Below are positions 27,391-63,388 of a stretch of 64,000 nt of DNA, in pieces. The DNA is from Obrimoposthia wandeli (taxonomy: Eukaryota): assembly GCA_977020255.1 (NCBI GenBank), contig CDROCS010000295.1, forward strand, positions 62,001-126,000, written 5' to 3'. The notes under the pieces are model-generated. The model worked only from the letters and a program-made list of their open reading frames with translations. It had not been told where the DNA came from and ran no database searches. The translations under genes were made by a program, and so were the position numbers. Numbering within the stretch: position 1 is the first letter of the stretch; each line of letters begins with the position of its first letter.

Positions 27391-27433
27391 ATTGATTCTT
27401 TGTGGTTTATTTTTTTTATTCTTTGTGGTTTAT

Positions 27434-28165: not shown

Positions 28166-29433
28166 CATACATGCTAGGCTGCATCAATTATGGATACAAC
28201 CCTATTGTAAGAATCCTCTGTCTTTCTTAACGACGGTTTAATCAAATATATCGCCATTTGTATTCTCGATTTTTAAACGCGCAAAAAATCGTCCCTCAAC
28301 GACGATTCGAGAAATTTCTTTCTCATTGTGCCCAGCTTTTATCGACTGTTTTTTTACAGTTTTGATCATGAATACGGCAATTAATTAGTTAGAATGGTAA
28401 ATATTACTTCTAAAGACGCCATTTAGGTATTCAGCTGCCTATTTAACATCGCTTTATCACGCACTTTACTACCGAATTATATATTTATTTCAATCCAGCA
28501 ATTAAAGGGGCATAATGAAAACATGGACAGAAATTAATATGTTGAGAGCTTTTGTTGCAGTCTATACCTTTGTCTTTCAGATACACTTTCTATTTTTAGA
28601 GTTAATTAAACGACATATAATTTTTCTTCAGCCTTATTAAAAAATAAAGAATTTAATTTTAGATTTGAAATATTTAGTGACATCATTTTTCTCAACTCTA
28701 TTTGCAGATCCAGTTTTCTCAACAGGCCCATATTCACAAAGTGCAGTAAAACTGGTCAGCAAAAATATCATAATGCACTAAAGATATGAAGAAATATTGC
28801 ACCGGAAAACAAAATTATGGAATCACTAGTTTGTCTCAGAACTTTTCATTAAAACATAAAATTGTTAAAATTAGATAGATCGTTAATTTCAAAATAGTAT
28901 ATATTAAAAGCACTTTATACAAGGTGTATCGAAATACAAATCATTAAAGAAAATGCTACATAACATATATTTCTTTTATACATTCTTCTCAATTTCATTT
29001 AGATATCTCTTTTCCTGATTATTCCATAAATTTTATCATGTGGCGGGGCGTTATCTTGTTGAAATTTAGGCCATAGTGCACTTCTAAAATATGCACAATG
29101 GAGTATTTTGTAATTCTTCTTCAATTTTGGCTCTTCGGGAAAATATGGTCATTCGCATGTAATCGTATTTTCAGTTGATTGTCCTCTAAAGATAACTTAA
29201 AAATTATTAGATAAGAGTAGGTGGATGTGTCCGGTCTAATCCATACCCCCTCCCCCCTACTGTCCCTTAAAACCGTGCATGTGTGTGGAGTGAAATTCCG
29301 TGCAGGTGTGTAGAAAAAATTTCTACCCCCACCCTCCCAAACACTCAAAAAAATAATTAACTCCATATAACACCCTCCATATAACACCCTGACATTATGT
29401 TCACTGAATCCTGATGACAATACGCTATATAGC

Positions 29434-31612: not shown

Positions 31613-31929
31613 CGCTTTTGGGTAGAAAAGAATGCTAGCCTGGCTTATGGACACTTCCGAATTTAAACGGTTTTCATTTTATTTTATTTTTTTTAGTTTT
31701 GTTTTTTTTAATTTTAGATCCCTATGGCACCTTGACTCTAACTTTTTGTTATTTCAATACTTTTTTAGGTTGGACCTTATCTTTGCTGACATATCTCATT
31801 GTGATGTTGTGATTAATAAATGTATTCAAAAAATTTGTCTTATGTCTTTTATTATTTTACCCTTATATTTTTAGAGATTTAAAAAATAATTAAAAATAAA
31901 ACATTAAAAATATTTATTTTTATAACACA

Positions 31930-32193
31930 CTAATCGTTTTGCAACGATAACCATAAAATACATAAATGTCCACAGTTTCTCGTCGCAGGATCCTGATATT
32001 GTATCTTGTTGTAAAATACTCTTATTCGTCCTTTTTGAATAGTCGAAACAAGTTTGTGTGGATAATACATTGCAAGTGGATCAAATACATGTATTGTCCA
32101 CTCTCTAACATAAATAGCCATCCAATGTTCTCCTGGTAAATTCGAAGTATGAGTATTGATAATGTAACCTCCAGATTGAAAAAATGGAATCAT
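31930..32193 (-). CDS. Polinton adenain-like cysteine (maturation) protease
   Basis: NTHTSNLPGEHWMAIY...FDPL...YQDPATRNCGHLC (His/Asp/Gln/Cys catalytic set). Confidence 0.9.
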   Translation of the reverse strand: MIPFFQSGGYIINTHTSNLPGEHWMAIYVREWTIHVFDPLAMYYPHKLVSTIQKGRIRVFYNKIQYQDPATRNCGHLCILWLSLQND

Positions 32194-32311
32194 ATCAATA
32201 GGATAAACTCCATTGAATTTATCACCCAGGACCTTCTCTGCTGATTCTTGTACTTGTTTTGAACTAAATAAAAATTAATAAATATAAATTTAAAATATGT
32301 CTTACTCCATT

Positions 32312-33500
32312 CTATAATATGACAGTTCTGTTTTTATTGATTTGTATTTCCGAATCAAATACTCCGTAAATAAGCACCGTAGTAGGATGTGTTAAAGCTG
32401 CATTGAACTTAATTTCTAGTCGTAAATTTCCATCCTTTGGTAGTTGACATTGGTTTATATCAAAGTCTGGTGCCAAAACAAATGTGAAGAACGGGCAGCT
32501 GCTTTTAAAGTCAGTGAAAGAAATACCATTGTTTATATTTTTATCTAGTTGACCCACATTCCGAATAATAGATTGGGTATAAGCCAAAGCATAAGCGTCA
32601 CCTTCGAAATCTGTTTTATATGTTTCGCGATAATCAGTATTTCTTGAAAGTGTCACTGAACCAACATTAAGATTGTCAAATTGAGTTGCATCTGTCGTAT
32701 AATTTCCTAGAAACTTTGCAGTTTTTTGAAAAGAAATTAAAATGAATTTCGGTAATCTTACATCACCAAAAATTTGATCCTTATTAAAAGCTTGTGTACC
32801 CGTACCTAAAGAATAAGATATAAGTTTAGTTTCTCTAATAGGATAACAAGCATTGTTTTTTTCCATTCCTATATTATGTGCCATTAAAACTGATTGCTCG
32901 GTTTTAACTCTTCGAACATACAATTTTGCATCCAAAATATCAAGTCTAGGTTTTAGAACGTCAAAGAAAAATTCCATTTATTACGTTTCAAACGAAGATG
33001 TACATTAACACCAAGAATTAAATATTGCGGTTGTTCAAAGAAATTCAATCTCAAAGACCCACACATTTCGTAAGCTTTAGAACCTGCAATCCATTCTTTG
33101 CGAGTTGCAACAGTTTTATCATAACCAATGGTTGCCAAATTAGTATTTTGAGTATCAGTACTATAATTCAAAAGACTTTCAATCAAAGCTTTATGAGCAT
33201 AGGAAGAATTTCCACCTTCAATTTTGACATTATTAAGAGTAACAATGGCATCATTAAATAAAGAATTAAAGGGATAATTTACAGGTGTTACATCGGCATT
33301 TTCATCTAAATTAGTACCATCCCGATTTAATACTTTTATTTGAACATAAAGCAAAGTATCATTCAAATCTAAATACTCGCTATTGGAACCATTAATATTA
33401 AATTCTAAATCGGTTAAAGTGGTTCCTGAAACTGAGTTAACTAGGAATATTTCTTCAAAGGAAGCATTATCTACAACAGTGGAAGTGGTTTATCAAAAAT
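32312..33500 (-). pseudogene. Polinton major capsid protein (double jelly-roll), frameshifted
   Basis: LEFNINGSNSEYLDLNDTLLYVQIKV, NYPFNSLFNDAIVTLNN, LDAKLYVRRVK, RLPKFILISF, GNLRLEIKFNAALTHPTTVLIYGVFDSEIQI. Confidence 0.9.
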
Positions 33501-33529
33501 ACACAATTCAGTTTTGGCGCAACTCATTT

Positions 33530-33860
33530 TGCAAATATTGTTCCTTCAACATTCTTACGTTTGTTTATATTGATTTTTTGCTTCTTTTTACTTTTAAATC
33601 CACTACCTCCTTGGCTTTTATTTGATTTACGTTTTCTAATCAAATTAGCAACTTCAGGTAAAACATTATCAAGTTCATCAAGCGCATGCTTCTTAAAAGT
33701 TGGTATTAGTTTATTGTCTTTAGATGAAAGGTAATCCTTTCATAATTTTGATATAAATCGCCTGAGTCTCTTTAAAAGACGAAAGGCAAATCTACCTTAT
33801 GTTCTAAGCCAGCCAGATCCATATTGTTTACCAACAAAATATGGTAATTCTCCACCTTGT
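33530..33860 (-). pseudogene. Polinton small basic QxGxG protein (PZ-like putative core/membrane-active protein), disrupted
   Basis: Minus-strand GKQYGSGWLRT*GRFAFRLLKRL...KSQGGSGFKSKKK located between mCP and MCP. Confidence 0.55.
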
Positions 33861-33879
33861 TGGCTTTGTCTATAAGCTT

Positions 33880-34915
33880 CAATTATTGCTGGATTCGCCA
33901 TTTTGTTTTCTTAAATGTATTGTTAAACTTGTCTTGGCCTCGTGCGTGAAATCTATTAGTTGTCCGGAATCATCTCTAATATTTACTTCAATATTGTTTA
34001 TAGAAAAAAGAGAAACTGGAAGATACATTGGCTGATCTATACACATACCAACAGCGTCCCCATCTCTAGTTTCATTTTTAGATATCTATATTGTTCTCAA
34101 AAGTGGAACTCGCTGTCCTCCTACAAGCGTTGGTTCTATTAAATTAGTATAAATATATAAATGATTAACAGCATTTAAAAGTTTTGCCTTATTTTTAGCT
34201 TTTATGGTTTTTATTGTATGGGTTTCAAAGGTATTTCTGTTTAAACCAAGGTTTTTAGCGAGTTTATCATCAAATGAAACTCGTTTTATATTGCTCTTTA
34301 CTGTAAACGTTATTTTACCATTTTTTAATGTTTCACATTTATCCAAATATTCATTACATTCCTTCTGTATTAATTTACAGAAATTCACTTCACTGTCTAT
34401 TTTATAATCTTTTGAAAACATTTTCAGTTCCACTACAGTCTTTGGTCTCGTTTCAACTAACAACACTCTTACTACTCTACTAGGAACATTTTAAAACATT
34501 TTAGATGAGACAATATTAGATCTCTTCATACCTACTACATGTCCACTATCAAAACCGAATTGAAGAGCTTCTCTTCCAGATTCGAATATAATTTGAATAG
34601 GTTGAAAATGTTTTGATCGATTTTTAAATCTGACTTTGTTTTTTTTCATATATTACTTTCACTTCTTTATCTATACAATTGTAAATCAAACCCGATCACA
34701 ACTTTAGTTGTTTTTTCATGATCAACTTCTTTTGTAAACGAAATACGTGAGTTTTTTCTGATAGTAATTGGAGAATAATAAAAAGAAAATTCGGTTAAAG
34801 CCGCTTCCCATTCTCCTTGGAGATTTATAGGATTTCCCAATCGATAATAAAGCTACTAGCGTAATTATCTGGTTGAGTCTTCGGACATCCGTTACTAGGT
34901 AAAACCATATACATA
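33880..34915 (-). pseudogene. Polinton minor capsid (penton) protein, frameshifted
   Basis: N-terminal MVLPSNGCPKTQPDNYASSFIIDWENPINLQGEWEAALTEFS, central LYIYTNLIEPTLVGGQRVPLLRTI, C-terminal NNIEVNIRDDSGQLIDF. Confidence 0.85.
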
Positions 34916-34919
34916 GACT

Positions 34920-35830
34920 TCATATTATATTAGATGCTGATATCCAAGTTGGGTCTGAATAACCATGCCATTTAACAAAGTATTGTTTATGTTTACGGGC
35001 ACCCTTAGATTTTAATATTTTTTGAATACGGAAAACGCTAGGTTTATTTGATATTACTTGTAGTTCTTGCTCGTAAAATTTACCGTGAACGATATTATTG
35101 TCAGCATCTTTAATAGTATACATTATTGGATTACTCTTTTAATCAATTTTACTTATACAAAATATTTCATCGCTCCAATTCTGATTAAAGTTTTTAATAA
35201 ATGGAGTAGAGCTAATTTTCGAAATTCGAACATATTCGTTTTTCTTATATTTAGCTTTTTTAATTTTTACTTTTTTATTCCTGTTCATCCAAATGTCCAT
35301 AGAGTTTTTATTAGTAACATCAACAGGTCTCATTCCCTTGAGACCTCTATGTTCAGAGTGATTATATGCATGTATTATTTTAGGTAAAACTTGGATCCAT
35401 TTTTTATTTCCTTCTTTTGTGAAATACTTTTTATCAAATACCTAAATCAGTTTGCACATTTTGTGGAATGTCCAATTTTAATATTTCTTTAATGGCTTCA
35501 AGCATAGCTAATGAAGACTTTGCTTTAACTGGAATTGCACGAGCAAACCTGCTAAATACATCAATACATGTTAAAATATATCGATATCCCTTATTAATGG
35601 AAGAATATGGGATCATCTCCATCAAATCCATTTGCCATAAATTATTAGGACTGCTGGTTTTGTAAGCTCTAGTTGGAAACCTTCTTCTCATCGGCTTGTT
35701 CAGACTGTAGGCTAACTGGTCGCTCAGCCATTTCTGCGTTTTCTTGTAATTCTGTTTTTGTTCTTTTTGCTAATTTTGAAACTCCTGTATAGCCAATTGG
35801 ATCTTTTGGATTGAACCATATCTTCTCCAT
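34920..35830 (-). pseudogene. int: Polinton retroviral-like integrase with C-terminal chromodomain, frameshifted
   Basis: WFNPKDPIGYTGV, LWQMDLMEM...YRYILTCIDVFSRFA, VQTDLG, VRISK...NWSDEIF, VHGKFYEQELQ, QYFVKWHGYS. Confidence 0.92.
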
Positions 35831-35916
35831 TACAACAATTTGAATAGAAAGAAAATTTAGGTTTAGGTAAAGAAGGGCTAGCACCCATATCTTTAGCTGA
35901 TTTTAGAAATAATTGT

Positions 35917-36246
35917 TTATGAACGTGTCGCAGCTATAATACTACTGATAATTGAAGCAACAACTGGAATAACAGCCCCTATGAAACCACCATTCTGTTT
36001 AAGAGTAATATTTCGTTTTCTTTTTTTACTTTTTACATTAGCAATATCTAGAAGAGTTTTTCTATATTTCTTTAATATATTTTTCCGATTTCCAACTTTT
36101 ACTCGACCCAAAACTATATTATATAAAACTTCCAATAAATCATCTACAACAAAGGATGGAAATGCTTTAAGAATAATCATTCTCTTATTAGAAGAGGCTT
36201 TGACTAAAGCTTTAAAATAGGGTATGCTTCTTTGTATTTTCTTCAT
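35917..36246 (-). CDS. Conserved Polinton small protein with QNGG-F motif and amphipathic C-terminal helix
   Basis: Basic N-terminus, LEVLYNIVLG, then LKQNGGFIGAVIPVVASIISSII; resembles an adenain cleavage site followed by a hydrophobic peptide. Confidence 0.7.
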   Translation of the reverse strand: MKKIQRSIPYFKALVKASSNKRMIILKAFPSFVVDDLLEVLYNIVLGRVKVGNRKNILKKYRKTLLDIANVKSKKRKRNITLKQNGGFIGAVIPVVASIISSIIAATRS

Positions 36247-36261
36247 TTTAATAAAAAAGGT

Positions 36262-36417
36262 TCAATTTAAATATTGTTTATATTCGAAGCCATTTAAGTT
36301 TTTTTTATTTTTAACTACAGATTTGATTAATTTTTTCACTTCTTTTTTCTTAATGATTCTTTTTTTTGATTTCTTAGATTTTACTTTACGTTTTACTATC
36401 AACTTAGTAAAAGGCAT
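36262..36417 (-). CDS. 51-aa lysine-rich protein (not in the ORF track)
   Basis: MPFTKLIVKRKVKSKKSKKRIIKKKEVKKLIKSVVKNKKNLNGFEYKQYLN, sitting between the ATPase and the QNGG protein. Confidence 0.45.
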   Translation of the reverse strand: MPFTKLIVKRKVKSKKSKKRIIKKKEVKKLIKSVVKNKKNLNGFEYKQYLN

Positions 36418-36424
36418 TGCGAAT

Positions 36425-37077
36425 TTATTTTTTATAATTGTTCTCTATTTGTTTATAAACAGTTACTCCCTTAGAATTAAATATGTCTGTTAAAACACGT
36501 AAATCATCTGGGCAAGCTTGTGTAAAGTCAATAAATATATACCCATGTGCTTGTTTAGCAGCATCGTGGAATGAATCAACTAGAAAGTTCTTATTTTGAG
36601 GAAATGCCTGTCTGGCCACAAAATCAACAACTGTTTGATCTCTAGGATTATTAAATAAAACTAAGTAATGTACATTAAGATTTCTTGTTCTATGGTGACC
36701 TCCTTGGTGAAACAGATTTTGAGTGATAAATATAACTGTTACTTCACGATGTCTTGCAATCTTTGTAAATAAATTATTAAATTCCGATTCCTTGTTAGCC
36801 TCCTCATACAAATCATCAATTATTACTACATCTTCTTTTTTCAATCTTTCACACAAATTTGCATCAAATCCTTCAATAAATTTTATACCCTTCAACTTGC
36901 AAACTTCATTTTTGTTAACCCGCTTTCCCCTCCTCCACCATGATGCCAATAAATATTTTTGAAACTAGATTTGAAAAGAGATTCATTTTGCAATAATTTA
37001 CAGACGAAATGTGTCTTTCCACTTCCACTAGGGCCAACTATTTGAAATACAGCATTATTATTTAGTTCCATTGCATA
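36425..37077 (-). pseudogene. A32/FtsK-like packaging ATPase, frameshifted near the N-terminus
   Basis: MELNNNAVFQIVGPSGSGKTHFV (Walker A, upstream frame), VVIIDDL (Walker B), ITQNLF...RTRNLNVHYLVLFNNPRD. Confidence 0.92.
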
Positions 37078-47213: not shown

Positions 47214-49243
47214 TGTTAAGATTAGGTTTTAAATAATATTAAAATAATTAATCTATTTATATTAAAATAAAAATCCTTGAAAGCAAGGTTATAATTAAAA
47301 ATAAAATTAAATTATAAAAGTAAATTCTTAAGAATAAAATTAGCGGGAAAATATTAGGACCACGAAGGTCATGTGTAAGCATGTGAGGTATATAAAGAAG
47401 TTAAAGTTAACCAAAAGGGCCCCCGAAAACGTTATAGAAGGTTAATTAAGAAACAGAGAAACGGAATTAAGAATAAGAAGAATTTGATTAAGAAGAAACA
47501 GAAGCAGGAAGAAAGGAAATCAATTAGCCAGAAATCAAATTGTCCATTAAGTCTAGACGGATTATAACGGCAGGCCTCAATCCCACGAGTCCATTAGCAG
47601 ACAGAGACAGTCGAATCGGATCGCAACAGGGCCACGATTCGTATAAAAAAGGAATTGGCTACAATTCATTGCACAACAAAAAAGAAACCAAAAAATATAA
47701 ATCAGAATTGTCAGTTAGATCGAAATTGATAACTTGATTTTCAGAAAAAGTATCAAAGAAGTAACGTGATCTCAGAAGTTCAGACAGACAGAATAAATCG
47801 AAATTGATAAAGAACTGTAGAAGACAAGCCGTGGAAAGGTTATAATTTATATAAAATTGAAACTGAAAAGAGTTTTAGAAACAGGAAGCAGCTAAGCTAT
47901 ATTGCTCAGAATCGACAAGTGGCACCGGAAGGAAAACAGCTATTCCAAAGGAAAGGCCAAATCAACGAACTAACAGAGATCGGAAGCACCTCAACCATCA
48001 GAACAATCAGGCAAGGATCTTTTGCCAGCAACTGACTTCGCGGATCAACACCAGTACTCAAATAAAGGTATAAAAAGACTAAGGAAGTAAAGTATCATTG
48101 TTAATTTGAAATTTTGGGAATATTTGATAAAAACTAAAGAAGTAAAATATCATTCTTAAATTGAGATTTTGTAAAGGGTTTTGATAAAAACTAAAGAAGT
48201 AAAATATCATTCTTAATTTGAGATTTTGTGAAGATTTTGATAAAAACTAAAGAAGTAAAATATCATTCTTAAATTGAGATTTTGTAAAGGGTTTTGATAA
48301 AAACTAAAGAAGTAAAATATCATTCTTAATTTGAGATTTTGTGAAGATTTTGATAAAAACTAAAGAAGTAAAATATCATTCTTAAATTGAGATTTTGTAA
48401 AGGGTTTTGATAAAAACTAAAGAAGTAAAATATCATTCATAAATTGAGATTTTGTAAAGGTTTCGATAAAAACTAAAGAAGTAAAATATCATTCATAAAT
48501 TGAGATTTTGTAAAGGTTTCGATAAAAACTAAAGAAGTAAAATATCATTGTTAAATTGAAATTTTGGAAATATTTTGATAAAAAACTAAAGAAGTAAAAT
48601 ATCATTGTTAAATTGAAATTTTGGGAAATTTTGATAAGAACTAAAGAAGTAAAATATCATTCGTAAATTGAAATTTTGTGAAGATTTGATAAAAACTAAA
48701 GAAGTAAAATATCATTGTTAAATTGAAATTTTGTGAATATTTTGATAAGAAGTAAAGAGAACGAAAACCGAAATTTACACCGTGAATAAACTAATTCCCT
48801 ATTTTAGAGCAACCTGCTCTCAAAAATTAATTCATATTTTCGAGCCAACAGCACTTCCAAAAGATCTACTACCTAAACCTTGTCGCATTTTAGAGTAAAG
48901 ACTCTCATAAAATAAATCACCCTAAAGTAAAATCGATACGTGGTTCATCCCCACTTGTGTAGAGACTTACAGAAGTCTTAGGAATTGTATTGTAATTTTT
49001 AGAACGTACTTAGACGTGTTAATTTAGTGTGCTTAGTAATAAACGATTTCCTACAACCAGAAAGCGTTTTTTAGACCCTTCAGAGTAAGAAACAACAAAC
49101 CTTCAGATAAGAATTGAGACAGGCAAGCATAACATTAAGTAGGCCACAAACATCTACAAGTCCTGCTTCTATAGAACTCACGTTGGGGCCCTCCACTAAA
49201 GAGGATCTATTTTAGAACACAGTTTCATATATAAACCCCAACA
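47214..49243 (+). mobile_element. 5' LTR (~2 kb)
   Basis: TGTT...AACA ends (left boundary inferred), TATATAAA near 47389, several AATAAA; the 3' part is homologous to 20590-21000 and is followed by the PBS. Confidence 0.7.
48071..48755. repeat. ~58-60 bp tandem array (about 11 copies) inside the LTR
   Basis: Unit aaaactaaagaagtaaaatatcattcttaaattgagattttgtaaagggttttgata with variants. Confidence 0.95.
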
Positions 49244-49251: not shown

Positions 49252-49269
49252 TGGTGCCCCGAGTGAGGA
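49252..49269 (+). promoter_or_regulatory. Primer-binding site, elongator tRNA-Met-like
   Basis: TGGTGCCCCGAGTGAGGA is complementary to a tRNA 3' end ...UCCUCACUCGGGGCACCA, as recalled for metazoan elongator tRNA-Met; it lies 8 nt after the inferred LTR end. Confidence 0.75.
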
Positions 49270-49361
49270 TAGCTCGTCGGACACAGCGACTTCACGTAGA
49301 ATAAGAAAGCAAATTGAGAATAAGTTACAGAAGAGGAAGATATCAGCAAATTGAGATAAGA

Positions 49362-50177
49362 GAATTGATAAAGTTTGAGAATCGAGTAGATTTGTTCCTC
49401 GAATTAAGTAATTTGATAAAGTTTGAGAATCGAGTAGATTTGTTCCTCGAATTAAGTAATTTGGATAAATTTGTGAATCGAGTAGATTTGTTCCTCGAAT
49501 TAAGTAATTTGGATAAATTTGTGAATCGAGTAGATTTGTTCCTCGAATTAAGTAATTTGGATAGATTTGTGAATCGAGTAGATTTGTTCCTCGAATTAAG
49601 TAATTTGATAAAGTTTGAGAATCGAGTAGATTTGTTCCTCGAATTAAGTAATTTGGATAAATTTGTGAATCGAGTAGATTTGTTCCTCGAATTAAGTAAT
49701 TTGATAAAGTTTGAGAATCGAGTAGATTTGTTCCTCGAATTAAGTAATTTGATAAAGTTTGAGAATCGAGTAGATTTGTTCCTCGAATTAAGTAATTTGA
49801 TAAATTTGTGAATCGAGTAGATTTGTTCCTCGAATTAAGTAATTTGATAAAGTTTGAGAATCGAGTAGATTTGTTCCTCGAATTAAGTAATTTGATAAAG
49901 TTTGAGAATCGAGTAGATTTGTTCCTCGAATTAAGTAATTTGATAAAGTTTGAGAATCGAGTAGATTTGTTCCTCGAATTAAGTAATTTGGATAAATTTG
50001 TGAATCGAGTAGATTTGTTCCTCGAATTAAGTAATTTGATAAAGTTTGAGAATCGAGTAGATTTGTTCCTCGAATTAAGTAATTTGGATAAATTTGTGAA
50101 TCGAGTAGATTTGTTCCTCGAATTAAGTAATTTGGATAAATTTGTGAATCGAGTAGATTTGTTACTCGAAGTAATTA
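49362..50177. repeat. 48-bp tandem array (about 17 copies, two variants) in the 5' leader
   Basis: Variant A ttgataaagtttgagaatcgagtagatttgttcctcgaattaagtaat and variant B ttggataaatttgtgaatcgagtagatttgttcctcgaattaagtaat. Confidence 0.97.
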
Positions 50178-50717
50178 ATTGAATAGGTTAAGTCGAGTGA
50201 CGAGTCCTCGAATTAAATAAATTGATATAAGAAATCTTAAAATAAGAATTGTGAAATAAGATAAAAGTAATAAGTAAATTGATATCGTAAACGAATACAT
50301 AATTGATAAAACAACGAATAATAAAAAGGGACCAGCGTTTAATACTAGAAGACAAAGTCAGTTTCCACAGGAAGAGATAAAAAATAATAATTTAAGCCGA
50401 ATTGAACAGGTTCCTCAAAAAGATAAAAAAGTAATAGAAGAAGCTAGAATCGAAGAAAACGTATCAGAAAGAGACGTAAATCAATCAGCAGTTTCAACCG
50501 ACAGTTTTGATCTGACTGAATTGTTTGGTGAAATAAACCAAGAAGAAATTGAAATTATTGAAGTTCAAAACCCAGAAGAAATTGAAATTGCCAATCCAGC
50601 AGCGGTTGAGGAAGTTCAATTGAATAATATTGAAGAAATAGTTGAGGAGGACATAGCTGAAAATATGGCTCACGCAGGAGCTCAAGCAGGTAATAACCCA
50701 GGAATAATGTAGGAGGA

Positions 50718-53700
50718 ATGAATGCAGAACAGTTGGCACAAGCCTTGAATGCGACGTTGAGACCCAACATTTCGGGATCATTGCAGATTACAAAGTTTAA
50801 AGGAGATGAGGAAAGTATTTGTGACTTCCTCGCAGAATATTCGAGTTGCGCAGATGTTCAAGGATGGAACGATAGAGAAAAAGGTGTCCGTGTACAGGCT
50901 CATTTGACCGGATTAGCACTTGAAGTGTATAAACATTTGACAGAAGCAGAACGTTTAAATTGGGAAACGTTGGAAAGTGCTTTTATTGGAAAATTGGTAT
51001 TGGGAGACTTAGCAAAAGTAAATAAGCGAATCATGAGAGAACGAAAACAGAAACATGACGAAAGCGTGAATGAATACGCGTATGTTTTGAGAACCTTGGC
51101 CGCACGAGCGCACCCAAGAAGAATAGTGAGAAATCAGTTAGCTCAACCTGTAGCTCAAGAAGTACAAGCAGCGGAAAAGATCCGGAACCAAAATGAAATG
51201 GCAGAAGTTTTGTTAGATATATTTAGAGGAGGACTGAAAAAAGACATTAAAGTGTTATTGGCAGTATCGGATACAAATGATTTTGATATCGCCGTACGAA
51301 AGGCGAGAGAAATTGAGGAAAATATAAAAAATAACGCAGCATTGGCAATTTACACAATGACCACAGGTGATGACGATAAGACAAAGGTATTTGTGAAAAA
51401 GACAGAACCGAGTAATTTTCAGAATCGAAATTATGGACAAAATAAGTTCGAAAAAGGATATGAATCCAGTAACGGAAATAGAGATAATTTCCGAAGTAGA
51501 AATAGAGATGATTCAACAGGTAGAAATAATAGCGAGCCTTGGAACAGGAATCGAGACGATTCAAGAGGTAGAAGTAGTAATGATTCGTGGAACCGAAATA
51601 GAGATGATTCCAGAAATAGATTTAGTAGAGATAATTCAGGAAATTGCCTACCGTGGAGAGGAGACGATAGGAATTATAACGCAAACAGAGGATAGCGAAA
51701 TGACTCTCGATTTGGAAATAATGCAGGAAGTAGTGACGGAAGATTCAATAATCGAGGAAGCGGTTTTGAATCGAGTTTCCGAAGAAATGATTTTAGAGGA
51801 CGCTATGACAATAGACAGAATAGTCGTCGAATACAGTTCGAAAATGAACAAAATAAGATAGATATTCGAGGGAGAATAATGTATTATACGTGTAAACAAA
51901 TGGGTCACTACTCGAGAGATTGTACGAGAAGTAAAGAATTCGGAACTAACAGATTTGGAAATAATAATTTTGGAAATAATTATAGAGGATATAATTCACC
52001 CCTGCCATGGAATAGAGGTGGTGGGTATACTCTGCTGCAATGGAGACAGAATAATCAGTATACGGATAGACAACAGTCACCAGTCAGATACAATAATTAT
52101 GCAGACAGACAGCAAGGAGCTGAAAGATACAATAATTACGTAGGACAGCAAGGAGCTGAGCAATATAATAATTCCGGAAGATAAAATAATAATAATGTTG
52201 ACAAGACAAATAGTCGTGAGAGTTCGCCGAAACCGAAAGGAAATTTTAGTTACGTAAACGATGACAGCGATAGAAATCGCGAGATCGAACTTCGACGCGA
52301 AATAGATTTTGAAGATAGCGATAGTAAATTTGAACGAATGTTGGGAATAATTAAAGATTCACCGCATACAAAGATGGCGAATTTATCTACGTTGTCGAAA
52401 CAAGGAAAAAATCTGCACTCGAGAGAAGAGATGAATGATTTAATGAACCGAATACTAGAAGCGCATGAAAAACCAATAGAGAAAACGTGTAACGCACAAC
52501 CTATGACTGATCACATAGAAGCAGTAAGAAATGCTAAGAGTATGGAAAATGTGAAAAAGATAATTAGTGAAGCTAAAGAGACGTTGAATCAACCGTTAGA
52601 CGAAGCGAGTGAAACTCCAGAAGTTTTGGCAAAACTACAAACAATTAAAGTGCACAGATTGGAAGAAGTGCGAGCAGAATTGGTTAAACATAGTCATGAT
52701 AACTTGATTTACAAAGATGTATCACGAGGATTATTGAAAGGATATGGTCGTTACGTACAGAGATCAAATCAAAAAGGAACGATGAAAATTTCACTTCGAT
52801 TAATTTCCGGACAGAATATGCATGAAAAACGTAACGTATACCAAACAATGAAAACTATTCGAAAAAGGTTGGCCGAGAAACTCGAAATAGATGGAATGAA
52901 TATGTTGTTCCATTATAAAGGAAGATCACTAGATGATGAAGACATACCAGTCGAGTGCGGATATCCGATAGGAAACGAATTAGAGGAAAAAATTGATGTC
53001 ATCACTGTAGGACGTCAGGAGTTAGTAGATAATGAAGGATTGGCTGAGATATTAAATTCTACGTTAGATATGATAACAACACCTATAGAAATTCTAGACA
53101 GTTCAAGCGAAAGCGGAAATAATGATGTAGCTGAAGCTTGAAACAAGACGTCCACACCTGAACCAAACGTAGCTGAACCACAGGACGTGGAACCAAAAAA
53201 TGAGTTGACGAATCTGGTAGTTGAAGTACCACCTGAGCAAGAGATAATTCAAACCGGACAAGATGAAGTCACGGATGTAGCTAACCAAGTGAGAAACCGC
53301 GAAAAGCGTAACCGAACTAGTTAGAGAAGACGAAATCTCCGAGATTGTAGATTTAGATTCACCAATTTGGCATGCCGCATACAGAGATAGACAGGCAGAG
53401 CAGACGATGCGACAAAAATGAGGAGATTGGTCATGTAGCAGGACCAATTCAAGAGGTACAGTATAATGATGAACCGTATGATCCAGGTGAGAATCAAACT
53501 GAGTATCAGTATTTTCGAAGAGGGCCTGGAAAACCTAGAAAATATGGAAGTATATTACGAAATGTTCTAACTGCACCTCAAACTGATGAGGAGATACATC
53601 TAAGCATTGGACAGTTAGCAGCGTCATTAGAGCAGTATAGTGCAGAGCGAAATGAAGATATCAGGGGTGATATGAATTCGGAAGCTCCAAGTAGTAAAGA

Positions 53701-54055
53701 TATACTTACGGGAATTATCAGGCAAGTAAAGCCGAAGTTGTTCAAAATGTACAAAGATGAAACAACCGATATAACAGACAATTTGACTAGAGCAGTTAGA
53801 TCACAAATGTCTGCAGTGAAGAAAATGACTGCTAATCAAGAATACCATGCATCAATAGACAGATTCTATGATGGCGAAGTTTTAGCGAGATTATGTGGAA
53901 ACCAGACTACAAATAAGAAGCTAGTCACAGCGATTACATATATATGTTTCCAATTGACGGAAAGAACGAGCCAACCTCACGAAGTCAAACAAGGAATAAA
54001 TGAAGCGATATATCTGATCGAGAACGTATTGCAGCGACGAATTGACGAAAATTGA
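50718..54055 (+). pseudogene. gag: Extended Gag polyprotein (capsid, R/G/N-rich linker, Zn knuckle, ubiquitin-like domain, unknown domains)
   Basis: ITKFKGDEES..DFL...GWND, RKQKHDESVNEY, FRGGL (capsid); YYTCKQMGHYSRDC (CCHC with first C changed to Y). ORFs 50718, 51879 and 52338 share one frame separated by single stops; 53372 follows after a frameshift. Confidence 0.85.
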
Positions 54056-54181
54056 GGTTGGGCAAAATTAAGCGACTACGCTAAAACCATTGTGGAAATG
54101 AATGAAGACGATGAGGAACAATGCCATGAGAATCGTCAAAGAGAAAATAAAAAAACCGTCCGAAAGAAAGAAACAATCAAC

Positions 54182-54642: not shown

Positions 54643-55410
54643 CAGGCATCAGCGTTAGTAGCATACGACTGTAGCGTACCACAGATGGGACAAAAGTATT
54701 CACTGCTTGACAGCGAGGACTGTCCAGAATCACAACCCTCAAAATTAGAAATTAAAGGTGTTGAAAACTATTTCGTGTATCAGGATGTTGATAAAATACA
54801 GGTACAAGTGAAGGAATGCTCAGTTCATTCAAGTTATCACGAATTTTACTGTGGTCATAGAGGTTTTATGTCGGAAATCACACCTACCACACTGTACAAA
54901 CCACACAAGGTCTTTCCTGGAGATTGCGAAGGCGCATTTCGAACAGGAAAAATAGAAATAGATAAGAATTACAAACCTGATGTGAAAATTGGGGTGAGAC
55001 GATACGAAACAGTCACGAGAGTAGGATGACGATGGGCTGATGGATCTTGTGACGGAGGAACAAAAAACGTGCGTGGTACCGAAGTAACAGAGTTAGTAAT
55101 GGACGTAACTTACCAGATCGAATTAAAAACATGGACCGCCAATTTTGATAAAAATACAAAACGAATGATGAAGTATCCGGAATATAGATTGACAGATACA
55201 TCTTGTCATACAGGTGAATCCACCATTGTGTATCACGTGGATCCAAAACAATGCTCTTTAGTATTTTTGAAAGAGATTAGATTTAATAAAATAAAAGGGT
55301 TCCTGTATAATAAAGGTGGAGAAGGATTTCATAACATAACAGGACCAATTCCTACGACGCCGACACCTACACTGTTAATGGCAAAGAAAACAAAGAAAAA
55401 AAAAACCTAA
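54643..55410 (+). pseudogene. env: Chuvirus-like (class III fusion) glycoprotein, N-terminal ectodomain fragment
   Basis: QASALVAYDCSVPQMGQKYSLLDSEDC...VQVKECSVHSSYHEFYCG...DCEGAFRTGKI...VG*RWADGSCDGG matches the recalled YDC...SLLD.x.C...C...YCG...G..DG.C.G cysteine pattern of chuvirus-type glycoproteins; one in-frame TGA; no TM reached. Confidence 0.75.
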
Positions 55411-55522
55411 GAAAACTTTACATCATGAATTTTGCGAGTTTTGTATTGTTAAAAAAAAAATAAAGCAAAAAGAACAGAAAACTGAATGTATAGTCGAATA
55501 CCAAATCACACGTAAAGAGATT

Positions 55523-55882
55523 TTGGCTCAACAAGACACACCGGTAGTGTCATTCGTTAGAAGACTATATCCAAAAAAAGCAGAAAGAATCAGAGATTTG
55601 GTAGAAAATAAAATAAAAACTACGCGAAACGGATACGGATCAATTTTTGAATTACTGCGAGATAAAGATGACAGTACAATTGAAACAAAAGAAAAAGAGT
55701 ACATAAATGAACTAGAATACGTACTAGAAGATCCGGAATGCGCAGTTTGTATGGTCAACAAAATAGAAGTTGCCTTTTTACCATGCAGACATGTGAGAAC
55801 ATGTCGGAGATGTGCGAAGGAAATGGTATCATGCCCGATTTATGCCCAGAAAGATAATAGATCGACAAGTGAGAAATATTAG
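55523..55882 (+). pseudogene. IAP/MGRN-type RING-HC domain directly upstream of the protease
   Basis: ECAVCMVNKIEVAFLPCRHVRTCRRCAKEMVSCPI; a frameshift switches to RKIIDRQVR in the protease frame. Confidence 0.85.
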
Positions 55883-57241
55883 ATTTCACTATCCAAACAA
55901 AGGAAGTGGACCGACAAAATTTAATAATTCGATAAATACAATACACCATATGGGAAATATAAATGGAGCACAGCGACCAGCAGCTATCATTAGAGTGAAT
56001 AATTTAAAAGTAAAAGCCTTAATTGATACAGGTGCTGTAGCTTCGATAGTAAGTGAAGATTGTTTGACAGAGGAACAGAAACAAACAATGGCAGAACCAG
56101 ATGAATTCTTGGTATCGGTCAATGGAGACCCTGTAAAAGTGACGGGATAATTACCATGTACATTTATAATTGGACGTAATACGATCACTATACCAGTTAG
56201 AATCATGAAAGAATGTCTTGAACCTACAATTTTAGGAATGGATGTACTATCACAACTCAAAGGGATAAGTATTGATTTACAAGATCCAATATTGAAAGAT
56301 AGTAAGTCAAACAGACAAATAAATCAAATCAATGTAATTATAGAAAATCCTATAAAAATCTGTAAAAGATCGCAATTTCTTATTCAAGGTTACACATTAT
56401 AAGAAGATAAAGGACCAGTTGTGTTCGAACCATCACGGGATTTCATAGAGAAATACGAATTACCGATTGTGAGTACAGTATGTCTGATTGAAAACCACAA
56501 AATACCAGTTAGACTGATGAATACAACCAACAATGACATCCTATTATACAGAGGAATGAGGTTGGGAAAAATAGCACAGATGGAGAATTCCACTGTATGT
56601 GCTATGAAACTCGATAAAGATAGGAATGATTACGAAAAATAGTAATCCAAACAGAAAGACTGACAACCAGAGAAAAGAAACAATTACTCGATCTAATACA
56701 TAAATTTCCAAAAGTAATTGCAAAAAATCCGTATGACATAGGAGAAACACCTGTCATAAAACACACAATACCGCTGACAGAAGACAAAGTAGTCAGAAAA
56801 AGACCATATCGAGTACCATTACAGTTACAAGATGAAGTCAAAAGTCAGATTGAAGATATGTCTAGAACAGGAGTAATTAGACCGAGTTTTTCACCATTTT
56901 TAGCACCTGTGGTGTTAGTAAAAAAGAAGGATGGAAAAATGAGATTATGTATAGATTTCAGAGAACTGAACAAGATCACAAGAAAAGATGTGTATCCATT
57001 ACCTAGAATTGAAGAGATGCTTGATAAATTAGGTAATTCAGATTATTTTACGACATTGGATTTGCAGAGTGGATACTGGCAAATCGAGATAGAGGAAGAG
57101 GATAAACACAAAACAGCCTTTTCCTGCGGAGATGGACTATACGAATGCGAAAAAGGCCATTCGGACTGACAGGAGTGCCAGCAACATTTCAGCGTTGCAT
57201 GAATTTTGTACTCGCATCATGTGCAAACACGATGGTTTAAT
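55812..57241 (+). pseudogene. pol: pol, 5' part: aspartic protease, spacer and RT N-terminal half
   Basis: ALIDTGA and ILGMD (protease); RPYRVP, SPFLAPVVLVKKKDGKMRLCIDFRELN, YPLPRI, TLDLQSGYWQI, KTAF, PATFQR (RT); stops and frameshifts. Confidence 0.95.
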
Positions 57242-60200
57242 GGTTCTAGGACAATTACCCGCCGGACAATTACCCCCCGGACATTTACCCGCCGGACAAC
57301 TACCCGCCGGACAATTACCCGACTAGAACAATTACCCGCCGGACAAATACCCCCCGGACAATTACCCGACTAGGACAATTACCCGCCGGACAATTACCCC
57401 CCAAAAAATACAGGGCGAGTTGATGCACTTTTAATATAAACAATAAATTAAAATTTTTTACGAAGAGGGGTAATTTAATTATATTTATTTATTTAGATTA
57501 ATTAAATTAGTAAAAAGTTATTAATAAGGGGGTAATCAAAAAAGTGAAATATTAAAAAAGTAAAAAAGTTAAATAAGGATAAACTATAAAGGGAGGTATT
57601 AAAATGGTAAAAACTTTAAAGTGTTACTTAATTAAATGACAGATACTAACATATGATAATGGAATTGGTCTAGTATGACTCATGTATATTTAGACGCCAG
57701 TAATACAACTTAACGCTAAGAGAGTTTGTATAAAACTAATAAAACTATTTAGGTCAAAATTGATAAGTATATGTTCACAATGTTGGGGCAGACTTAATGA
57801 ATTAGGAGTTGGTGCGTGTTGAGGCGTAGCCAGTAGTTACAATTAAATCGAAGTTAGTTAGATTTATAAGTTAGTAAGATTCACAAGATAAACAATCATT
57901 GTATATTTTACCCATGGAATTTATTAACTCTAACCGGGGAAAAATAAAGGTACTATACAAGGGCTTTGTATATGTTAAGTCCAAAACGTTGTCATCTGGT
58001 GCTGTTTCTTACGAGTGTGAGCTCCGACGAAACAGCAAGCAATGCAAAGCTAGGATTATAGTAAGTGGCGATATGATTGTTAAACAGTTCAACGACCATA
58101 CTCATGCTGCTGATATTGGTCGACCAGAGGCACTGAAGATTCGTCAGTCGATAAAGAGTCGTGCTGTAAATAACGAGGAAACCCCTCAGCAAGTTATCAC
58201 CCAAGAGCTTCAAGTTATTTCCGACTCTGCTGCTGTGAAACTTCCAGCCATACGCAACATCCGACGTTGTATTCGTCGACATCGTCAAGTTGCCGGAAAT
58301 CCTCCCGCAATCCCGCAGACTCGTGCCGAAATTATACTACCTGAAAAGTACAAACGTACACTGGCAGATCAGCCTTTCCTATTATTTGACAGTGGTTCAG
58401 TTGATGATAGGATCCTTATGTTCTCTACAGAGCGTAATCTGCACATCCTCGACACATCCGTAGACTGGTTTTGTGATGGAACGTTTAAGGTTGTACCTGG
58501 TGTATTTTACCAATTATTTACAATTCACGGTCTTACCAACAACCACATGGTTCCCTGTGTCTATGCACTTTTGCCAAATAAGCAGGAAGTGACGTACGTG
58601 ACCTTTCTACGTGAACTTTATAGACTTAATCCGGAGCTAAAACCACGATCTATCATGATTGACTTTGAGTCGGCTTCCAGGAATGCACTGGCCGAGGTTT
58701 TTCCTGCCGCAACCATACAAGGATGCTTTTATCATTTGTCACAAGCCGTCTACCGCAAAGTCCAAAGTGTTGGACTTCAAGAGCAATATCAAAACAACGC
58801 CGATTTTAGCTTAAAGATTTGCATGATGACTGCTCTTGCTTTCACTCCACTGAACGATGTGGTAAACTCATTTGAACATCTGGCTGATTCTATGCCTGAG
58901 AAAGCACAACCCATTATAGACTATATTGAGGACACCTATATTGGTCGACACCAACGCTCTTCGCTCATGCCATGTGGAACGTCCGAGACAGAGTAGAGGA
59001 AGGACTTCCACGTACCAACAACCATGTGGAAGGTTGGCATCGACGTATGCAGTCTAATGTGGGAGCCTATCATCCTAGTATCTGGCATTTCCTGGATGTA
59101 TTGCAACGCGAGCAATCACTCAACGAAGTCATCATGACACAGATTCTAGCCGGACAAGCAGCCCCACCCCAACGTGGCAAATACAAGGCCATCACCGAGC
59201 GCCTAGTTACTGTTGTGGCTGACTATGACAACCGTGCTATCCTGGACTTTCTTTGTGGTATTGCACACAACCTACAGATGTAGATTCTGTGATGATCAAT
59301 GTGACTGTTATAGAATTGTTCTTATTCAAGAATAACTATACAAATAAATAAACACATGTCAATTGTTTTTTTCTTACCTTCCAGTATTCTTAACAATATC
59401 TATTCAATAACCTATTTAGCACTTTACTTTCTTCTTTTTCTTGTTGTAAGTCCTCTACTTCAAGTTTTTTCCTTTCTCTTACTTCTTCATCGTGTCTAAT
59501 GGCTACGCCTCAACTTGTCCAGCCCGAAACGGTTTCTAATTGAGTAAGTCTGCATCAACTCTCTCCAGGGCGAGTTGAGGCTCTTTTAAAGGGGTAATTT
59601 TGAGTAATTTTTTTTTGTAATGGAGAAACAAAAGCTAAAATAAAAAGGTCTAAATTGTAATTTAATTTCCATAAATCTGAAAGGGATGGGTATTAAAAAT
59701 TTTATGGGGTAACAAAATTTAGTAAGAGGTATAATAATTAATAAGATCAAAATATTAAAAAATGAAATAGTAAAATTTTAATAGGTGTAATTAAAAAAAA
59801 GTAAATAATAATAAGGGGTGTTAAAAAAGGGAAACATTAAAATATTAATAACAGATGATATAAAAAGGAAAAAAATGAAATGAAGATAAAAAAAGGAAAC
59901 AGTCAAACTTTAAAGGTAAAAAAGTAGAAAAGGTAAATATTAACAAATGAGACATTGTGAACATATACTTATCAATTTTGACCTAAATAGTTTTATTAGT
60001 TTTATACAAACTCTCTTAGCGTTAAGTTGTATTACTGGCGTCTAAATATACATGAGTCATACTAGACCAATTCCATTATCATATGTTAGTATCTGTCATT
60101 TAATTTTGTAACACTTTAAAGTTTTTACCATGTTAATACCTCCCTTTTTAGTTTATCCTTATTTAACTTTTTTCCTTTTTTAATTTTTAGGTTTTTATAC

Positions 60201-60460
60201 CCCCTTATTAATAACTTTTTACTAATTTAATTAATCTAAATAAATAAATACAATTAAATTAACCCTCTTCGTAAAAAATTTTAATTTATTGTTTATATTA
60301 AAAGTGCATCAACTCGCCCTGTATTTTTTGGGGGGTAATTGTCCGGTGGGTAATTGGCCTAGTCGGGTAATTGTCCGGGGGGTATTTGTAAGGCGGGTAT
60401 TTGTCCTAGTCGGGTAATTGTCCGGCGGGTAAATGTCCGGCGGGTAATTGTCCTGTTACC
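57242..60460 (+). mobile_element. Mutator (MULE) DNA transposon inserted in RT
   Basis: ~540-bp TIRs (57242-57783 and 59952-60460) with terminal ggacaattacccgcc subrepeats; 8-bp TSD ggtttaat at 57234-57241 and 60461-60468. Confidence 0.95.
57899..59283 (+). pseudogene. FLYWCH-MULE transposase with one frameshift near 58960
   Basis: YKGFVYVK...YEC...CKARI (FLYWCH), WFCDGTF...YQLFTIH, PCVYALLPNK, IMIDFE, GCFYHLSQA, RTNNHVEGWH, HPSIWHFL. Confidence 0.92.
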
Positions 60461-60468
60461 GGTTTAAT

Positions 60469-61547
60469 TCGATGACATAATAATATTTTCTAAAACGTTC
60501 GAAGAACATCTAAAAAATCTTGAAGTTGTATTTAAAAGACTGGAAAACACTAAATTAAAAGTTAAACCTACAAAATGCGAATGGGCTAAAGAGCGAGTAA
60601 CATTTTTAGGACATATAGTATCGAAAGAAGGCATCCGACCTGATCCAGCAAAGATCGAGAAAGTAAAAGCGCATGTAGTGCCAAAGACTGTTAATGAAAT
60701 ACAGAGTTTTTAGGTCTTGCGAACTATTATAGACGATTTGTTGAACATTTTTCAGATATAGCAACACCATTGAGAAAGTTGACGAGGAAAGATGAGAAGT
60801 TCATATGGGGAAAAGAAGCACAACAAGCGTTCGAGCATTTAAAGGAAAGACTGATAAAAGCACAAATATTAGCGTTTCCAGATATAAACCGATAATTCAT
60901 ATTAATGACGGATGCAAGTAACTATGCTGTAGGAGCAGCATTGGGAGAAGAGGATGACGAGGGAAGAGAACACGTCATCGCGTATGCGAGTAGAGGGTTA
61001 AACAGAGCTGAACTCTGTTATTGAAAAGGAATATCTAGCCATAGTATATTCATGTAGACAGTACAGACACTACTTGCCAGGAGAAAATGTATTCCTGTAT
61101 ACAGATCACAAACCACTACAGTTCTTGTATAAACATAGAGACGAGATGAGTAGATTAAACAGATGGTTTCTGAAATTGGCCGAATTTGATCTAGAAATCC
61201 GTTATAGAACCGGAAAGTCAAATGGAAATGCAGATTGTTTGTCGAGATTGATAAATGTAGACGAGAAAGGAAATATAATTCCAGAAGAAGGTCAAGATGA
61301 AGTCAACGACCAAAAAGGAGAAACAAATCTACTAACGATTTTGCTGAATAAGGGTAAAATAGACAAAGAGATCATCAAGGAACATAAAGAAGATGAAGAA
61401 CTGAGTCTAATCAAAGAACTGTTAGTGAAAGGAGATCTAAACGATGAAATGACGAAAACATACTCGATAAAAGAAGGAATCTTGTATATTGTCAACAATG
61501 TCGGAAACATAGTAGTAGTAATTCCGAAATCATTGAAAACAGTTTAG
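60469..61547 (+). pseudogene. pol: pol, 3' part: RT C-terminal half and RNase H, truncated before integrase
   Basis: FDDIIIFSKTFEEHL, KPTKC, FLGHIVS, GLANYYRRFV, TDASNYAVGA, IAYASR, YTDHKPL, RLNRWFLKL, NGNADCLSR. Confidence 0.95.
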
Positions 61548-61732
61548 AAAGAGATAATCTTGAGCTGTGGTTTGTAAATATCAACAAGATTAAGATTCCA
61601 ATCAGAGCCGAATATTATAAGAATGTTTAAAATTCAAATTGCGATTGGTCCTAAGCATAATAAACTTCGCTGTCAATTACGATTTGTCTGGAGCACTGCT
61701 GACTGTATCTTATTATTTCAGGCGCAGCCGCC

Positions 61733-61922
61733 CGGACCGGAGGGTCGAGTCGCTGTCTGTGAAATTTGCGAGGATGAACCAATAAGGATGGCCCTGGTTC
61801 CATGTGGCTATACGATGTGTATGCAGTGCTCCTTGTCGATACAAGACTGTCCATTCTGTAGAGAAATTGTTAACAAACGGCAGAAATTAACTTTGGAGAA
61901 GAAGATGCAGATCCAGAAATAA
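61733..61922 (+). CDS. RING-HC-like domain (IAP type; His replaced by Tyr)
   Basis: CEICEDEPIRMALVPCGYTMCMQCSLSIQDCPFCREIV; preceded by a ttattatttcag acceptor-like site. Confidence 0.75.
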
Positions 61923-62392
61923 AACTTGAGCTTTAAATGTTTTCTATGTATGTTGAAATGTCATTGACACTCAATATAAATGTAGGAGTAACGGCAGTCA
62001 TTTAAAATAAGAGCAATCAAATAACCTGGGATCAGTTTCAAGCTGGAAAGAATTTCCTTCGTATATTTAATCAGGTGAGTAACAATTTAAATAATTTTTA
62101 TAGCTGCGATAATTTGTAGTCTTCATTTGATGATTATTTACCCTAAAAAAACTTCGAATCCGATTTAAAATTTTAAAAAAATTATTTTGTTAACGATCAT
62201 TTTAATATTTATTCTATTCACAGTAATATTAAAAAAGAACTACGAGTCTAATTTATAGTTTTGATAAATTTCATCATTTGTCATATTCATTTTATTTACA
62301 TTTAAAGCATTTGTGAATTTGTGAATTTGATTTGTAGTTTTAACTACCAACTTCTATAAGCTACTTCAATAAATAACTTTGAATTACATAAC

Positions 62393-62550
62393 AGTAGGTG
62401 GATGTGTCCGGTTAATAAACCCCCAGGTGTGTTACCACTGTCCTTTAAAAACGTGCATGCGTGTGGAGTGAAATATCGTGTATGTGTGTGGAGTGAAATT
62501 TTCTACCCCCCCTAACACTCAAAAAACTAATTAACCCCATATATCACCCT
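62393..62550 (+). mobile_element. Left end of another Polinton of the same family
   Basis: AGTAGGTGGATGTGTCCGG, gtgtggagtgaaat repeats and acactcaaaaaa.taattaac.ccatata, as at 29216-29390; no right end in the window. Confidence 0.8.
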
Positions 62551-62838
62551 TTAAAATTGAAAATCTCATAGTGCTCCCTCAGAGTGTAGGTTACATCAGA
62601 AGGGAGCGGATGTCAATGCCAAAGATTATGTTTGGTTTTATATAAATTTATGTTATAACTATCTGTAGGTTAGATCATAAGGTTAAAAAACATCAGTGTA
62701 TTAAGATGTTCTTTTATTAATTTTAAAATATGTATTTTTAGAAAGTTATAAATTATTATAGTTTATAAATGAGAAAACAAATTAGAAAATAAACATTTAT
62801 TTACTAATTCCATCAAGTATTTTCCAAATAGGAGTCAC

Positions 62839-63186
62839 CTATCCACTAGGTCCGATCTTGTAACCTTGTATCTTCATATTGATATTCCATTGTAATCCAG
62901 TTTGGCATTCAATTAATATTGATCCATCTATATTTCTGAAAATGGCTTCATCTTCTTTGATAATGAATTTGGGTTCTTGTAGACAATACTCACAATTAAT
63001 TTTTGTAAGTATTTTATTTATTCTTTCAACATCAGCTTTAATAATATTGGAAATTAGGTAGTTGAATTTCTGTTTTTCCACCGATACTGGATATATGAAA
63101 TTATAATGGATGGGGTTCTTGAGAAAATGCATCTCGTAACCATGAAAAGTATGAACACGTTGATACAAATCGGTTATGGCTTGCAT
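62839..63186 (-). CDS. Hypothetical protein just inside the Polinton left end
   Basis: ATG-initiated 115-aa ORF with a CEYC motif; no recognised family. Confidence 0.4.
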   Translation of the reverse strand: MQAITDLYQRVHTFHGYEMHFLKNPIHYNFIYPVSVEKQKFNYLISNIIKADVERINKILTKINCEYCLQEPKFIIKEDEAIFRNIDGSILIECQTGLQWNINMKIQGYKIGPSG

Positions 63187-63388
63187 TTTTATGAAAATTT
63201 ATGAAATTTCTCATCGTTTATATATAAAATCGATGTAGATATTAACCAATGAGAGTTAAATGGTGTGTTTATAGAACATTATTAATTATTCAAAACAAAT
63301 TATCTATAGAATATTCTAGTTAAATAATTATATTAAATTAGTTTTAACGCATCAATGAATTAATTATCGAAAAAAAGTGTTTGTTTAA

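Follow-up and report, generated by a model that had tools for sequence, protein, structure and literature searches.

The glycoprotein fragment at 54643-55410 (+) of the window, by which we mean the whole stretch of Obrimoposthia wandeli DNA analysed here (64,000 nucleotides; assembly GCA_977020255.1, contig CDROCS010000295.1, positions 62,001 to 126,000), is very probably the front half of the env of a decayed, ~22-kb, Burro-like Ty3/gypsy LTR element. The normal order of this element is gag-env-pol, and its active form likely made one membrane-threaded polyprotein building enveloped particles.

The env fragment and the damaged copy around it

An earlier note on this DNA had pointed to a chuvirus-type class III fusion glycoprotein beside a Ty3/gypsy pol, and the frame reads as described there: ASA-LVAYDC (the signal end), SLLDSEDC, YCG and DGSCDGG are all present, and translation of 54643-55407 gives 255 residues with an X at the single in-frame stop, 55027-55029, which was seen in none of 46 gap-free sister copies. 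The fragment matches the Pfam family PF24664 (Monjiviricetes_fusion) over profile positions 19-192 of 653 (E 7.7e-20; 70.8 bits, above the cut-off of 27), and a whole env from a sister copy matches it over positions 4-631 (E 2.3e-95), followed by a hydrophobic anchor (residues 827-857 of P0002). At the profile level the class III assignment is well founded; the word chuvirus proved too narrow, PF24664 being Monjiviricetes-wide and the nearest protein found being the retroelement-like P0005 (an unrelated ENA record of 1,582 aa, 42% identical over env, in which a BCL2-like region and env are followed by three protease-like stretches). P0005 was the single match among longer proteins when protein databases were searched with env, and likewise with an alignment as query; nothing was returned at near lengths, env queries matched no PDB sequence, and the viral contigs searched gave no env relative. 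An AlphaFold model of env from a two-row alignment reached a pLDDT of 30, and in Atlas the sister env fell closest to clusters of PF24664 (0.96), at a recognition value that is low (1599). Hydropathy is modest (1.55) in the signal-like segment ahead of env.

The recognisable parts of the window copy, and one stretch belonging to another copy, are as follows.

47214-49243 (+): 5' LTR of ~2.0 kb with TGTT...AACA ends and an internal 56-57-nt tandem repeat; the ends match two-LTR sister copies with 4-bp target duplications
49252-49268 (+): primer-binding site starting with TGG; 4 of 10 sister copies carry the motif, with no more than 2 mismatches, behind their LTR
49275-50245 (+): leader 48-nt tandem repeat (repeat families D1 and D4)
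50278-52184 (+): gag, interrupted by stops and a frameshift; its capsid-like domain and single CCHC zinc knuckle match Retrotrans_gag (E 0.0012, below cut-off) and zf-CCHC (E 2.8e-05)
52770-53030 (+): ubiquitin/SUMO-like domain (weak); Pfam ubiquitin E 0.019
53618-54088 (+): BCL2-like helical domain (weak) with a BH2-like GGW motif; Pfam Bcl-2 and PDB matches
54643-55384 (+): N-terminal half of env, a class III (gB/chuvirus-like) glycoprotein, preceded by the signal-like segment; PF24664 E 7.7e-20
55385-55404 (+): A-rich deletion filler of 20 nt, marking the private loss of the env C-half, anchor, protease 1 and BIR
55405-55882 (+): linker and RING finger of an IAP-like BIR-RING module; zf-C3HC4_3 E 5.8e-10
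55977-56330 (+): aspartic protease 2 with a DTG motif; RVP and gag-asp_proteas matches
56630-57241 (+): 5' part of RT, Ty3/gypsy type; RVT_1 E 9e-14
57242-60460 (+): MULE (Mutator-like) DNA transposon inside RT; MULE E 4.3e-18, FLYWCH E 5.4e-10; long inverted ends, 8-bp target duplication
60461-61542 (+): rest of RT and RNase H; RT_RNaseH E 8.7e-16; similarity to sister copies stops at 61542
20590-27414 (-): 3' portion of a different copy of the family, including its LTR end, with phosphatase, membrane segments and small RING frames; 91-94% match to the region past integrase in sister copies; DSPc E 3.1e-32

The Pfam matches of the ubiquitin-like and BCL2-like domains fall below the curated cut-offs. 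In the PDB, 22 of the 24 matches to the former were ubiquitin-like (best of these E 0.04), and 57 of the 58 matches to the latter were Bcl-xL/Bcl-2 chains or fusions (best E 0.14). Pfam Bcl-2 was matched at E 0.17 in a sister copy and at E 0.0069 in the same region of P0005, and a single-sequence model of the BCL2-like domain (pLDDT 41) matched only generic helical bundles (best Z 8.1). The primer-binding site presumably resembles the 3' end of elongator tRNA-Met; a search with one exact pattern found no matching tRNA gene.

The stretch preceding env measures 51-57 nt with a short run of Met codons in 8 of 10 sister copies and shows large triplet expansions in the other two. At the window's own N stretch, a genome search gave a simple-repeat tract with a length that is a multiple of three; judged from this tract and from the sister copies, the N stretch preceding env is hiding no env domain. 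In the two expanded copies the Met-codon run of the env signal has grown to 91 (C2606, L023) and 254 (C1002, L029) triplet units, and the element seems to seed microsatellites.

The missing C-terminal half and the order env-RING-PR had both been named in the earlier note. The first holds for the window copy and not for the family, in which 45 of 47 near copies keep the C-half; the second is no element plan, the window having this order because a deletion of ~2.4-2.5 kb, private to its copy, removed the env C-half, anchor, protease 1 and BIR. True env sequence stops at 55384, and between the positions corresponding to 55384 and 55405 the sister copies carry 2,402-2,489 nt (nine of ten by pattern; the tenth, with 2,486, by alignment). 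The RING beside env in the window is the end of the BIR-RING module, the BIR of which precedes RING in sister copies and was deleted here.

Other deletion forms of the family did spread, one pol-less joint being common to 4 of 47 copies, and on that ground the half env with its env-RING-PR order could be thought a real, separately spreading variant, e.g. a secreted decoy env. We regard this as very improbable, given that the joint 55384/55405 occurs once in the genome by exact flanks (diverged copies would be missed), that it was found in none of the 47 near copies, many of which carry other private deletions, and that the window copy combines a private stop with a RING out of frame with env.

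An even less credible reading is that a chuvirus-like glycoprotein fragment was inserted alone beside, or mis-assembled with, an ordinary gypsy pol. The truncation of env and the shifted RING frame would suit it, as would the short-read evidence at the joint, where a 79-nt contig (run X2, one sample, maybe the source sample) spans the breakpoints without a difference and reaches 29 and 30 letters past them, under a bridging rule of 31 letters. At most the deletion joint of the window copy may be an assembly error; linkage at the level of the family, described below, stands apart from it and speaks for the decayed gag-env-pol element. A marine metagenome run (0.10 share) gave nothing at the joint, with no bearing on habitat.

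The window copy is cut off at 61542, before integrase. The MULE within its RT has inverted ends of ~500 nt at 95% identity, with FLYWCH and transposase frames broken by one frameshift. Past the cut, 61578-63198 holds another RING frame and one of 119 aa that has no match in Pfam; 62383-62550 resembles 29206-29376, and 61578-63198 may be another end of a Polinton-like element. Such a Polinton/Maverick-like element lies at 29371-36964 (type B DNA polymerase E 2e-06, Pox_A32-like ATPase E 0.0023, capsid-like frames by eye), and DNA similar to it occurs near 4 of the 10 long sister loci. The stretch 20590-27414 (-) was considered as an inverted 3' half of the window copy and rejected, the LTRs being 87.6% alike and the flanks forming no target duplication.

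The family plan in sister copies

Exact 20-mers of env and RT occur 3,302 and 3,085 times in the genome (control words, 0), and at 38 of the first 92 env places listed, counted by eye, the RT word lies 3.9-4.6 kb downstream on the same strand. When the env fragment was searched as DNA, 40 places were scored; all but one are other copies (96-97% identity), and nearly all of the matches end near query base 742. A protein search with env scored 132 candidates, all at 89% or above. At 3,300 copies or more, the family probably accounts for tens of megabases of the genome. The sample used below comprises 47 near copies taken from the top of the match lists, 10 of them in 16-50 kb and 37 in 10 kb of sequence, plus three copies of an older subfamily; it is non-random, and the near copies were chosen by env similarity. 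The median env identity among copies is 95.9%.

In sister copies the order is gag, ubiquitin-like domain, BCL2-like domain (weak), full env with anchor, protease 1, BIR, RING, protease 2, RT, RNase H, integrase, phosphatase, pseudo-phosphatase and membrane segments. From env to integrase this order was constant among the 47 near copies, of which 45 retain the env C-half, 43 protease 1, 40 BIR, 36 RING, 34 protease 2, 28 RT and 24 integrase; the 10-kb loci in this count end 8.5 kb past env, and the retention of env is built in because the copies were picked by env similarity. The earlier note had correctly seen env adjoining, and 5' of, a Ty3/gypsy pol, with RING, protease and RT downstream in the window, and had allowed that other copies might show env unlinked to this RT; a same-strand RT follows env in 28 of the 47. 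These linkage counts and the in-frame joints described below rule out lone insertion or mis-assembly at the family level, thousands of copies having a fixed env-to-RT spacing, in-frame joints and LTRs with target duplications. The position of env 5' of pol, which had been read as a rearrangement or unusual gene order, is therefore the family's normal one, and gag-env-pol is published for flatworm elements.

Pfam matches in sister copies include BIR (E 2e-13), RING (E 1.4e-10), DSPc (E 8e-44), RT_RNaseH, Integrase_H2C2 and rve. Proteases 1 and 2 are 26-27% identical to each other, and the catalytic Asp is retained in 41 of 41 copies for protease 1 and in 32 of 34 for protease 2. The pol is assigned to Ty3/gypsy and not to BEL/Pao because the best PDB match of the sister RT-RNase H is Ty3 RT (E 1.9e-81; next 4e-46); no Pao-type Pfam family was matched in the window frames or the sister-copy frames.

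Downstream of integrase, phosphatase 1 is closest to DUSP10/MKP5 (E 3e-24), with the catalytic Cys kept in 11 of 12 copies and the Arg in 12 of 12, and phosphatase 2 has Tyr at the place of the catalytic Cys (set by eye) in 10 of 10. Beyond the pair lie at least four strongly hydrophobic segments, which by eye make up to three signal-ectodomain-anchor units; this membrane region gave no Pfam match, and it is followed by small RING frames and the 3' LTR. The element measures 21.7 kb in C1245, with a 0.8-kb deletion, and ~22 kb in C2162 and C1002 when insertions are subtracted. Exact 4-bp target duplications were found in two of the four two-LTR copies checked.

The deletion joint common to 4 of 47 copies is exact, with ~12 nt of microhomology; everything from RING to most of the 3' cargo is gone, whereas gag, env, protease 1 and BIR are kept. 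Copies of this kind, lacking pol, must have been propagated in trans. This derivative was seen at L058-L076 and in C2606 (loci L023-L024, L064, L072, L076), two copies being 99% identical in env, and the older-subfamily copies L088 and L089 share a different RT-less pattern.

The assembly itself is a mixture, in which many COX1 genes are bacterial and one (C5352) belongs to a further invertebrate, and ~7 kb of mitochondrial DNA occurs in several near-identical, nuclear-sized contigs (L094, L096; contigs C109, C736). In the multi-copy mitochondrial sequence AAA aligns with Asn at 4 of 8 places and with Lys at none, and ATA aligns with Met at 1 of 11, a usage that we take to fit the echinoderm and flatworm code. 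Contig C109 carries this mitochondrial sequence together with three env words. The host is probably a flatworm.

Reading frame, selection and a proposed mechanism

Twenty-four joints were scored between gag and the final membrane segment. In 23 of these the modal spacing is divisible by three, and 23 are read through by one or more natural copies. The modal spacings between the first and the last anchor sum to 5,389 codons. At the joint from the env anchor to protease 1, 29 of 40 copies are in frame and 18 open; the thin joints are that from NC to the ubiquitin-like domain, which is repeat-rich (4 of 10 in frame, 1 open), and the last one (3 of 6 in frame, 0 open). Among the copies examined none holds an unbroken polyprotein, and from the joint counts it is very likely that sister copies encode one frame of ~5,400-5,500 codons.

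Evidence of selection was sought over the 47 copies and the window, with values uncorrected for mutation spectrum. For variants common to at least three copies, dN/dS was 0.20 in env, 0.11 in the BCL2-like domain, 0.25 in protease 1, 0.19 in BIR-RING, 0.09 in RT, 0.05 in RNase H, 0.02 in integrase and 0.08 in the phosphatases, and env compared with four older-subfamily copies gave 0.24-0.25. Single-copy variants, in contrast, show dN/dS of 0.34-0.93 and many stops. The low values of shared variants and the stops among single-copy ones indicate that the modules worked in the source elements and that the copies have decayed since.

These observations allow a mechanism to be proposed, in which particles, fusion, cleavage and anti-apoptotic action are predictions. 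Entry of the env ectodomain into the ER lumen would be directed by the signal-like segment ahead of it, which would also hold the Gag-ubiquitin-like-BCL2-like products at the cytosolic face of the membrane, much as a tail anchor does in BCL-2 proteins. The anchor that follows env would bring the chain back into the cytosol, and there proteases 1 and 2 would free BIR-RING, RT and integrase. Env would then fuse particles with other cells, and the BCL2-like, BIR-RING and MAP-kinase-phosphatase-like domains would damp cell death and stress signalling. A burst of insertion would have been followed by decay of the copies; in the window copy, one deletion took the env C-half, protease 1 and BIR, a MULE entered RT, and integrase was lost.

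Env might instead serve for budding into, or anchoring on, internal membranes, with the element moving within the cell only. If all three come from one polyprotein, Gag, Env and Pol are made in equal amounts (1:1:1), unlike in retroviruses, and this is in keeping with such a role. We nevertheless think it unlikely, the 14 ectodomain cysteines of env being kept in 93-100% of copies and its dN/dS of 0.20-0.25 being as in a folded and working fusion protein, measures that do not themselves indicate the site of action.

Returning to env as a fusogen of enveloped particles, we tentatively suggest a broader picture, which is quite possible. The family may represent an undescribed Burro-like lineage, possibly outside dugesiid planarians: an enveloped Ty3/gypsy retrovirus analogue carrying Gag, a class III fusogen, two proteases, Pol and a host-control kit (BCL2-like domain, IAP-like BIR-RING, an active MAP-kinase-phosphatase-like enzyme with its dead twin, and up to three signal-ectodomain-anchor cassettes) in one multi-pass polyprotein of ~5,500 residues, with pol-less, env-keeping satellites spreading in trans. 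Purifying selection on the gB-type env and on every cargo domain tested supports the hypothesis of Burro-like elements as true enveloped proviruses steering host cell death and signalling. Accessory genes of the kind found after integrase are associated with large DNA viruses, and the phosphatase pair and membrane cassettes would be large-DNA-virus-like accessory genes in a retrotransposon.

Comparison with known elements

The features that had been flagged at this locus are known, and the locus itself therefore changes little. Env before pol and gB-type env on Ty3/gypsy have both been described already; the phosphatase and predicted membrane-protein cargo may be new. Among the entries listed, literature searches gave no fitting paper on phosphatase cargo, nor on a chuvirus glycoprotein in flatworm retrotransposons, and the word phosphatase is absent from PMC6431247. 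Two proteases flanking BIR-RING, a phosphatase pair with membrane cassettes and a spreading pol-less, env-keeping derivative were not found in the sections of PMC6431247 and PMC13524379 considered here; the figures and supplements of Grohme 2018 may list such domains.

The closest counterpart in design is Burro/GYPSM1 of dugesiid planarians (Jurka 2007 and Grohme 2018, as summarised in section 7 of Arkhipova and Yushenova 2019, PMC6431247; in its available part, PMC11410931 merely names Burro). According to that section, it encodes a 4,873-aa polyprotein with ubiquitin-like, BCL2 and BIR domains, its env lies in frame between BCL2 and protease, which was called the first such case, and a dUTPase-like domain was assigned between PR and RT from HHpred; the corresponding PR-RT spacer in our family fits such a domain in size and gave no Pfam match at E 10. 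Both have a very large polyprotein (of 4,873 and 5,140 aa in Burro/GYPSM1, of ~5,400-5,500 codons by inference here), a CCHC gag, an in-frame env before protease, BIR, RING and thousands of copies, and in both env matches mononegavirus-type fusion proteins. The candidate ubiquitin/SUMO-like and BCL2-like domains of our family stand where Burro has its own, with matches below the cut-offs. As far as that section goes, Burro differs in being over 30 kb, against ~22 kb here, in having two or three knuckles where one was found here, and in carrying MATH and ankyrin domains, for neither of which Pfam gave a match at E 0.1 when 13 frames of the window and 17 natural ones of sister copies were scanned. 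Conversely, that section makes no mention of proteases on both sides of BIR-RING, nor of a phosphatase pair and membrane segments following integrase, all of which our family has. The family works like Burro; it is not filed as Burro proper because it departs from it in size, MATH and ankyrin.

The earlier note had ascribed capture of such glycoproteins to BEL/Pao elements and baculovirus F-like env to insect gypsy errantiviruses, a division overtaken by Chary and Hayashi 2026 (PMC13524379), who, in the part considered, describe gB-type env across Ty3/gypsy. Mosquito BEL/Pao elements with a chuvirus-like glycoprotein (Dezordi 2020, as cited in the same part of PMC13524379) share the broad glycoprotein class with our family, and differ in that pol here is Ty3/gypsy and env lies inside the polyprotein before pol.

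Chary and Hayashi also report GAG-ENV-POL order in nematodes, bryozoans and flatworms, including six elements in Schmidtea. These, Smed_errantivirus_1-6 (HSV/gB-type, cysteine class C1a), resemble our family in their Ty3/gypsy pol, gB-type env before pol and many copies, and, compared by eye, their domain I-II rows share with our env its eight-cysteine spacing and its CxTG and TNY motifs. The Schmidtea elements are intact, whereas all copies seen here are broken, and the considered part of PMC13524379 reports no accessory domains for gB-type errantiviruses, unlike those found here. With a Ty3/gypsy pol, a class III env that has a signal-like start and an anchor, and gag-env-pol inside LTRs with a primer-binding site, the family belongs to the gB-type GAG-ENV-POL kind.
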